Below are positions 7,762-9,035 of a DNA stretch of 64,000 nucleotides, one piece after another. The position numbers were made by a program, and so were the translations under genes. The notes below the pieces were generated by a model. The model was not told the DNA's origin. It saw only the letters and a list, made by a program, of their open reading frames with translations, and did no database searches. Source of the stretch: Eledone cirrhosa (Eukaryota). How positions within the stretch are numbered: position 1 is the stretch's first letter; the number at the start of each line of letters is the position of its first letter. The stretch is taken from the NCBI GenBank assembly GCA_964016885.1, contig OZ024742.1, positions 336,102,001-336,166,000 on the forward strand, in the 5' to 3' direction.

Positions 7762-8064
7762 TCATATATCTACCTAGCTATATATATGTATATATACATA
7801 TTTAGATATATATTCCTATATACATATATATATATATTTAAACAATTAAGTTAAAAATGTACATCCACATATGTATACTGAAATACTAGTATGCATATGA
7901 ATACACACACGTATACATATGTAGATGTACCAAGTTTTTCACTGGTCACTTTACTGTGAGTGTCCAGCTATTCTGTATGTAAACACACAGACAAACCGGT
8001 TTTTAGAGTCATACTGGTTTTTGAGGAAACACCTTTCCTCTATTCTCCAGAAAGCCAGACAAGG

Positions 8065-8109
8065 AATATTGAACTAGTTTCGTTGTTGTTACAACTCATC
8101 AGCAATATT
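8065..8109 (-). ncRNA. Minimal type I hammerhead ribozyme (copy 1)
   Basis: Minus strand: aatattg CTGATGA gttgt-aaca-acaac GAAAC ta GTT caatatt. It has a 7-bp stem I, a 5-bp stem II, palindromic stem III (ACTAGT) and a GUU site. Confidence 0.85.
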
Positions 8110-8530
8110 TACCTATCTTCCGACCTTTCTGGAGAATCGTAAAAGCACATATCGTTATATGCTTTTTCTATGAAAATTAGTAGTGGGCAGACTAATTTGC
8201 ATAGAGCGTGAGTACGTACCGGTTCAACGGAGACGATAAAAACAAATAACGAAACGAAATTAAATTTCGTTTCGTTTGTAACTCACTTTTGTATGACTGA
8301 CGCTTAAACAATTAAGTTAAAAATGTACATCCACATATGTATACTGAAATACTAGTATGCATACGAATACACACACGTATACATATGTAGATGTACCAAG
8401 TTTTTCACTGGTCACTTTACTGTGAGTGTCCAGCTATTCTGTATGTAAACACACAGACAAACCGGTTTTTAGAGTCATACTGGTTTTTGAGGAAACACCT
8501 TTCCTCTATTCTCCAGAAAGCCAGACAAGG

Positions 8531-8575
8531 AATATTGAACTAGTTTCGTTGTTGTTACAACTCATCAGCAATATT
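8531..8575 (-). ncRNA. Minimal type I hammerhead ribozyme (copy 2)
   Basis: Identical to 8065-8109. Confidence 0.85.
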
Positions 8576-9035
8576 TACCTATCTTCCGACCTTTCTGGAG
8601 AATCGTAAAAGCACATATCGTTATATACAACTCATCAGCAATATTTACCTATCTTCCGACCTTTCTGGAGAATCGTAAAAGCACATATCGTTATATGCTT
8701 TTTCTATGAAAATTAGTAGTGGGCAGACTAATTTGCATAGAGCGTGTTGCAATTGTCTGTGTGTTTACATACAGAATAGCTGGACACTCACAGTAAAGTG
8801 ACCAGTGAAAAACTTGGTACATCTACATATGTATACGTGTGTGTATTCATATGCATACTAGTATTTCAGTATACATATGTGGATGTACATTTTTAACTTA
8901 ATTGTTTAAGCGTCAGTCATACAAAAGTGAGTTACAAACGAAACGAAATTTAATTTCGTTTCGTTATTTGTTTTTATATATATTTACATATTCGTATATT
9001 CGTATATACATATACATGTGCACCCCACTACATAC

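Follow-up and report, generated by a model that had tools for sequence, protein, structure and literature searches.

Animal non-LTR retrozymes have been described from coral, mussel, axolotl and newt (satellite 2) as tandem repeats without coding capacity, every unit of which has one canonical type I hammerhead. They have a GC content below 50%, a highly paired predicted circle and a target duplication of more than 4 bp, and they are present in thousands of copies with Penelope elements alongside (PMC7229834). RNA circles were demonstrated for several of these retrozymes (PMC7229834), and retrozyme units range from 51 to 972 bp (bioRxiv 10.64898/2026.07.22.740005). A link between retrozymes and Penelope elements has been proposed (PMC7229834). 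According to a review from 2020, the repeats of animal retrozymes have no conserved motif that would hint at a helper (PMC7761336); a Penelope helper was later argued for on the basis of co-occurrence and of sequence homology in frogs (bioRxiv 10.64898/2026.07.22.740005). An inverted copy, a one-sided tail and a bias for microsatellites are traits of Penelope insertions (PMC8557442). According to PMC11167929, two internal start sites define the tail, both target strands are nicked and extended, and a dimer of the enzyme is predicted.

The locus described here lies in a stretch of 64,000 nt from Eledone cirrhosa, hereafter called the window. It holds at least two consecutive complete type I hammerheads, is non-coding, carries a target duplication longer than 4 bp and specifies a stable predicted circle of low GC content. 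A preliminary description of this DNA had proposed a retrozyme-like unit, and this reading agrees with the non-coding tandem unit, the single type I hammerhead per unit, the dispersed young arrays and the highly paired predicted circle. Judged by its sequence, the 466-nt family belongs to the known animal non-LTR retrozymes as described in PMC7229834; retrozymes are already known, and the unit is not a new system. The unit measures 466 nt compared with about 170-400 nt for the demonstrated circles (PMC7229834). Plant-type LTR retrozymes carry a type III hammerhead in their two LTRs and have a duplication of 4 bp. A retrozyme of this kind was rejected, as we found a type I motif, tandem units and a 12-bp duplication instead. 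We hold it to be quite probable that the locus is a young insertion of an abundant non-coding retrozyme, which would propagate by dimer cleavage, a circle and twin internal priming by a Neptune-type enzyme.

Hammerhead motifs

Two hammerheads are located on the minus strand:
8515-8586, minus strand: hammerhead 1, assigned to canonical type I, with a short palindromic helix III; predicted cut 8538/8537 after GUU
8049-8120, minus strand: hammerhead 2, identical to hammerhead 1; predicted cut 8072/8071

Identical minus-strand hammerheads had been reported at 8531-8575 and 8065-8109, and we confirmed both as well as their spacing of exactly 466 nt. Each contains, as claimed, the catalytic core together with the ACTAGT palindrome and a GUU triplet, and the identity reaches beyond the motifs (8509-8601 against 8043-8135). 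GUU is a slower cleavage triplet than GUC, a point against the mechanism proposed below. With the predicted cut after GUU between 8538 and 8537, the monomer spans 8537 to 8072 and thus 466 nt, exactly as proposed before. The earlier label of a 'minimal' hammerhead has to be revised, since both motifs align to the Rfam model Hammerhead_HH9 (RF02275) as canonical metazoan type I. The match of both is full-length, with all 77 model positions and the internal loop of helix I included, and reaches 37.7 bits (E 6e-6 window-wide), which is under the gathering score (52); both motifs have a shorter loop III than the model. In this alignment, helix I (6 bp), an internal loop and an outer helix are found together with helix II (4 bp, loop of 6 nt), and helix III consists of the ACUAGU palindrome only. 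The core, the 6-bp helix I with loop 1, the 4-bp helix II with loop 2 and the short palindromic helix III are those of a canonical metazoan type I hammerhead by the definitions given in PMC4209133, to which we assign both motifs by sequence. Minimal Penelope hammerheads have a long helix II (7-8 bp), a short helix I and an extra base before helix II (PMC4209133); this type was rejected, as these features are not seen in the HH9 alignment. HHR_Amex1 of the axolotl, which cleaves well only as a dimer, has the same helix III of one pair and a palindromic tetraloop (PMC7229834). Besides, the window contains a degenerate hammerhead-like core without a cleavage triplet (7429-7460, plus strand), and its Rfam microRNA matches are TA/CA-repeat noise, all listed ones being far under the gathering scores.

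Anatomy of the insertion

The insertion was read on the minus strand in unit coordinates, with u being 8627 minus the window position. Its parts are as follows:
7829-7840, plus strand: left copy of the 12-bp target-site duplication, of which 3 nt overlap with the end of the element; it borders a TA-rich run
7838-8752, minus strand: main arm of about 910 nt (u417-466, u1-71, u1-466, u1-323); 3' end at 7838, site A
8072-8537, minus strand: predicted monomer or circle of 466 nt, circular MFE -158.0 kcal/mol
8170-8205, minus strand: hairpin with arms conserved in a sister family, holding the octamer-like ATGCAAAT (8195-8202)
8210-8235, minus strand: u392-417, the 'linker' of the preliminary description, an ordinary part of the unit
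8235-8240, minus strand: site B (u387-392), second recurrent 3' end of insertions
8248-8276, minus strand: hairpin B, directly 5' of start site B
8304-8313, minus strand: site A (u314-323), first recurrent 3' end of insertions and putative start of reverse transcription
8323-8395, minus strand: long hairpin A, adjoining start site A on its 5' side
8556-8696, minus strand: tandem duplication of 70 nt, adding an orphan 5' half of a hammerhead
8747-8752, no strand: filler of 6 nt at the joint between the two arms
8753-8977, plus strand: inverted second arm (u167-391), 224/225 identical to 8236-8460; 3' end at 8977, site B
8975-8986, plus strand: right copy of the 12-bp target-site duplication, with TA-rich sequence beyond it

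The 225-bp inverted arm, the 70-nt duplication and the 12-bp target duplication had been absent from the preliminary description. As the identical 12-mer is found at both ends of the locus, this is one insertion with both 3' ends facing outward. It had been cautioned that a 'unique' linker at 8210-8235 could mean two stacked insertions. This sequence is found in every full unit of other arrays and is therefore normal for the unit; together with the single target duplication, the linker-containing arrays elsewhere led us to reject two stacked insertions. The claim of a young locus, made from the near-identical copies, fits our observation that the repeated segments differ at one site. None of the other parsed copies has the 70-nt duplication, which likely arose by a template slip or a later duplication. 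No open reading frame above 60 codons is present in the whole insertion, the longest stop-free frame having 60 codons. A second copy of the octamer-like ATGCAAAT is located at 8731-8738. The stretch of about 70 nt from A to B is the counterpart of the Penelope-type 'tail'.

Insertion footprint

We parsed 89 insertions of the 466-nt family; their sources were the top-scoring DNA matches and those pattern matches that were listed first on one contig (C1). Among these, 64 were two-armed and 24 one-armed, and one was dropped because it was clipped by the edge of the fetched stretch; several of the one-armed insertions show a tiny inverted remnant by eye. The insertions are located in (TA)n and mostly consist of two divergent arms. 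When ends within u313-324 were counted as site A and those within u386-393 as site B, 54 of the 64 two-armed copies combined one A end with one B end, none had A/A or B/B, and 10 had one end elsewhere. Each of the two sites is preceded by a hairpin and a U-rich stretch. The target duplication mostly comprises 12 bp where the target has non-TA letters (once 13 and once 16 bp), longer matches being extensions within TA runs. The same end rule, with a tail of about 60 nt, was seen by eye in eight insertions of the sister family, others being obscured by an internal TA run. In LINE-1 twin priming, both target strands prime on one RNA, which results in an inverted 5' part. The retrozyme differs in its primers, which would use fixed internal sites 70 nt apart without poly(A), and its two arms copy overlapping unit sequence. 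In the literature covered, mostly the main texts of papers outside subscription journals, neither retrozyme insertions with two arms and fixed complementary ends nor (TA)n targeting by animal retrozymes were found to be described.

Further repeats are present in the window. Other families with hammerheads are represented in (TA)n by small fold-back insertions or their remnants (9835-9973, 11768-11907, 14020 and 14237), and the motif at 9907 and 14020 recurs at many GIY-YIG loci. Fold-back inverted repeats, most of them adjoining microsatellites, were found at 6114-6219, 10069-10128, 10516-10707, 12008-12345 (99% perfect), 21632-21756, 21800-21845 and 50496-50830. These fold-back repeats probably represent the same two-armed Penelope-type footprint in other families. 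At 16652-16868, a degenerate inverted repeat between TA runs is followed by sequence resembling the tail of a Neptune-type family (N1, see below). The window also contains broken LINE-like endonuclease and reverse-transcriptase fragments (15067-16560, minus strand), which we take to be RTE-type, a 5-kb (ACA/ACC)n array with stop-free frames (42108-47119), a weak U2-like Rfam match under the cut-off (60124-60201) and a 40/70-bp minisatellite (62089-63356).

Family and sister family in the genome

The 33-nt ribozyme core has 5,190 exact copies in the 3.0 Gb genome and none for the reversed control, so that the hammerhead match is far beyond chance. A variant core pattern gave a further 4,200 matches; in the first 100 of these listed, the cleavage site is GUU or GUC and helix II shows a compensatory swap. 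The copy number, which the preliminary description had left to be counted, hence amounts to at least 9,390 ribozyme copies of the 466-nt family (5,190 + 4,200). Moreover, at least 2,002 site-B ends in the genome run straight into TATATAT. The arrays are dispersed and non-coding, with a period of 464-470 bp and up to 31 units. One subfamily, found at C1:14.04-14.05 Mb (L201) and at other places, has 469-470-bp units with a GUC site and the compensatory swap in helix II, and is about 89% identical to the window unit. A pattern for other hammerheads with the same helix III returned only subfamilies of the 466-nt repeat among the first 100 places listed. The sister family is about 60% identical and has units of 420-540 bp with a GUA site and 24,001 ribozyme cores; it carries a variable (TA)n loop inside hairpin A and follows the same two-site end rule (e.g. 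L071:7600-9901, L133, L234 and L079).

Three other organisms hold 52-65% of the sampled unit words, in one case on a 496-nt contig with 6 differences. We give hardly any credence to an assembly artefact or an ordinary satellite amplified at the DNA level alone: part of the array growth is indeed DNA-level, and contigs from public runs are too short to span the joints of the window copy, but the target duplication, the fixed end sites and the recurrence of this anatomy at dozens of scattered loci speak against this explanation, as does the depth of the unit, which is very high in one sequencing run and lower in runs of the three other organisms.

The hairpin with the octamer-like motif (8170-8205) is conserved in both families and has 17,275 matches in the genome. 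For newt satellite 2, an snRNA-type promoter is mentioned in a citing passage of PMC2220036. Such a promoter is not supported for the unit: the octamer was not found in the 330 nt upstream of 6 U1 genes, and comparison of the units with 3 U1 upstream regions revealed no convincing common motif. The U1 snRNA genes (L241-L252) form tandem arrays of about 2.67 kb and have motifs near -55 and -260 in common.

RNA fold and selection

The circular monomer has a minimum free energy of -158.0 kcal/mol compared with -94.2 ± 6.9 kcal/mol for 60 dinucleotide shuffles (z -9.3), while the opposite-strand monomer folds at -131.1 kcal/mol. The predicted circle is 67% paired and low in GC (<50%). Among 15 ribozyme variants picked from 127 distinct sequences, both partners have changed in 8 of 18 pairs, and pairing is kept in 96.7% of the alignment cells of these 15 compared with 32-43% when slid; the independent covariation events are few because most of the ribozyme signal is one split between the two families. 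Across the whole unit (9 monomers), 18 of 79 consensus pairs are compensated between the families, those of a long-range helix included. As far as sequence comparison can tell, the RNA fold of the unit is kept in the sister family through compensatory changes. Within the family, the ribozyme core varies by 0.35% per site compared with 1.3-2.9% in loosely constrained parts, and the tail stretch u324-349 and site B vary even less (0.13-0.18% per site).

For a dimer transcript, the double-hammerhead fold was predicted at -209.2 kcal/mol and two single folds at -198.5 kcal/mol, a gain of 10.7 kcal/mol. The free minimum of the dimer, at -213.7 kcal/mol, has a mispaired core; the active dimer fold lies 4.5 kcal/mol above this misfold and has an ensemble probability of 0.0007 in a secondary-structure model that leaves out tertiary contacts. 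Cleavage as a dimer is plausible on the predicted gain, and the misfold counts against it. Read-through from the flank via the inverted arm of the locus would form a predicted 225-bp duplex that penalises the dimer fold; with this arm in the transcript, two single folds are favoured over it by about 60 kcal/mol (20 C). For the window copy itself, we see a real but lesser chance that it releases circles, and it may well be a passive daughter.

One template and two proposed primers

Variants were compared over 326 segments. The divergence per site was 0.32% between opposite arms and 0.38% between units of one arm compared with 2.6% between different loci, and 158 variants were fixed in both arms compared with 21 in one arm only. 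This sequence pattern indicates that both arms are copied from one template sequence. The longer arm ended at A in 23 and at B in 30 of 53 loci, and both arms exceeded one unit in 22. Since either arm can be the longer one, neither is a fold-back copy of the other, and an origin of the second arm by fold-back of the first cDNA was rejected. The 147 5' ends are evenly spread (chi-square p 0.32); near the ribozyme cut, 1 was observed compared with 3.5 expected, so that the template was uncut or re-ligated there. Accordingly, a self-cleaved linear monomer was rejected as template, given that the arms cross the cut site and that no pile-up of 5' ends is seen there.

An uncut template could be a linear multimer or a circle. 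Twin priming by a Penelope enzyme on an uncleaved linear multimer, with circles as a by-product or absent and long arrays stemming from long transcripts and unequal crossing-over, appears unlikely to us. The absent pile-up of 5' ends fits such a template too, and the lizard Penelope enzyme acts mainly on unprocessed RNA in vitro and does not need the ribozyme (PMC11167929); this counts against the circle, as do the 2- or 3-unit periodic variants in five long arrays and the report that only one of nine predicted frog retrozyme dimers was cleaved (bioRxiv 10.64898/2026.07.22.740005). Because of the periodic variants, array length by itself is no proof of rolling. However, cleavage would destroy a linear template, and yet the ribozyme is among the best-conserved parts and covaries between the families, which favours the circle. 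Furthermore, sister loci have fixed haplotypes in common but no sets of unit-specific variants, and no pair of unit-specific variants was common to units of different loci in a sample of about 65 out of more than 2,000. This absence also favours the circle and suggests a one-unit bottleneck between loci, within the limited power of such a sample. In a 20-unit insertion, the 18 full units that were read from both arms do not differ at any site, which again favours the circle. As a tentative elaboration of the circle, for which we see a real but lesser chance, an asymmetric dimer of the Penelope enzyme would hold one 466-nt circle at two hairpin-tail sites separated by 70 nt; its two subunits would be primed from both target strands at once and would both roll around the circle.

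Penelope-like elements as candidate helper

The genome has 10,596 GIY-YIG candidates, 150 of which were scored, and one candidate was placed by Atlas among clusters of the same architecture. A linker is described as the mark of Neptune or Nematis (PMC8557442), and by this linker the autonomous Penelope elements of the genome would be Neptune-type. Eight two-armed Neptune-type loci from four families lie in (TA)n with a short end on one side and a long end on the other; their tails measure about 40-68 nt, with about 68 nt in the local family N1. A long Neptune-type frame of 1,096 codons is located at C1:83.81 Mb. The Neptune-type autonomous elements thus follow the same short-end/long-end rule as the 466-nt retrozyme. 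N1 has the tail length closest to that of the unit but shows weak motif likeness. N1 (L061, L062, L066, L070) and N3 (L067, L076) are young Neptune-type elements with a hammerhead-like end fold and an ACCGGT palindrome. The core of this fold is altered and lacks CUGAUGA, and the fold is possibly an atypical or dead ribozyme. Penelope-like open reading frames of two other types (L071:3644-5074 and L079:2070-3362) are about 23-26% identical to the Neptune-type ones.

The retrozyme family shows the inverted second copy, the one-sided tail and the microsatellite target of Penelope-mobilised sequences. On the strength of these matching insertion scars, the copying enzyme of the retrozyme is likely Penelope-like. 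The insertion contains no open reading frame for a reverse transcriptase with a GIY-YIG endonuclease and is thus no autonomous Penelope element. With the Neptune clade (PMC8557442) and Poseidon PAc (PMC11167929), the family has in common the inverted 5'-truncated second copy, the one-sided tail, a type I hammerhead, the targeting of microsatellites and two internal start sites, which are putative in the retrozyme. The retrozyme differs from Neptune-clade elements in that it lacks an open reading frame, both of its arms are tandem arrays of one short unit, its tail is about 70 nt long compared with the usual 30-40 nt (about 68 nt in N1), and its ribozyme is canonical and not minimal. Non-autonomous Chlamys elements such as MRC1 are likewise non-coding Penelope parasites with multicopy head-to-tail insertions; they resemble their helpers at the 3' end and generally have no canonical hammerheads (PMC8557442), whereas for the retrozyme no sequence parent was found in 50 stretches. 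Of these, 49 surround GIY-YIG matches (from the 10,596), and comparison with the unit revealed no long homology among the matches listed.

Given this footprint, which is that of Penelope elements (PMC8557442), the unit might be the pseudo-LTR of an autonomous Penelope element and the arrays truncated copies of it. The scoring of only 150 of 10,596 candidates leaves room for such a parent, and 24 of 57 frog retrozyme families were found to resemble known elements, nearly all of them Penelope ends (bioRxiv 10.64898/2026.07.22.740005). We nevertheless regard this origin as very improbable: in the parsed insertions, as judged from untranslated flanks of 35-40 nt, the units join head-to-tail and never join a longer element, the unit hammerhead is canonical while those at Penelope ends are minimal or variant (PMC4209133), and the local Neptune ends carry different motifs.

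Proposed mechanism

For the non-coding retrozyme moved by a Neptune-type enzyme, we propose the following course. Some arrays would be transcribed, and multimeric transcripts would pair two palindromic helix III halves and release 466-nt monomers, which a host ligase may close into circles as in other retrozymes. A Penelope enzyme would then nick both target strands about 12 nt apart, in line with the observed duplication. On one template sequence, synthesis would be primed at site A by one strand and at site B by the other, as the footprint suggests. Twin priming would give two divergent arms, each able to run past the intact ribozyme site, and the two cDNA ends would be joined at the joint seen in the insertion. 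Long arrays were possibly extended by block duplication at the DNA level, which may account for their periodic pattern.

Significance

Which enzyme moves animal retrozymes is an open question in print, and the insertion footprint adds a third line of evidence to it. The formation of the inverted and tail structures of Penelope elements is a second open question (PMC8557442). The footprint shows a strict end rule (54 A/B, 0 A/A, 0 B/B) that the retrozyme and long-ORF Neptune-type elements have in common in one genome. The 466-nt unit provides a test substrate with two mapped candidate start sites and makes both mechanistic questions testable. If the double-rolling dimer were true, the insertions would be a genomic record of double rolling-circle reverse transcription, the puzzle of the Penelope inverted repeat and one-sided tail would be explained, and Neptune-type elements would be named as helpers of retrozymes with which they have no sequence in common.
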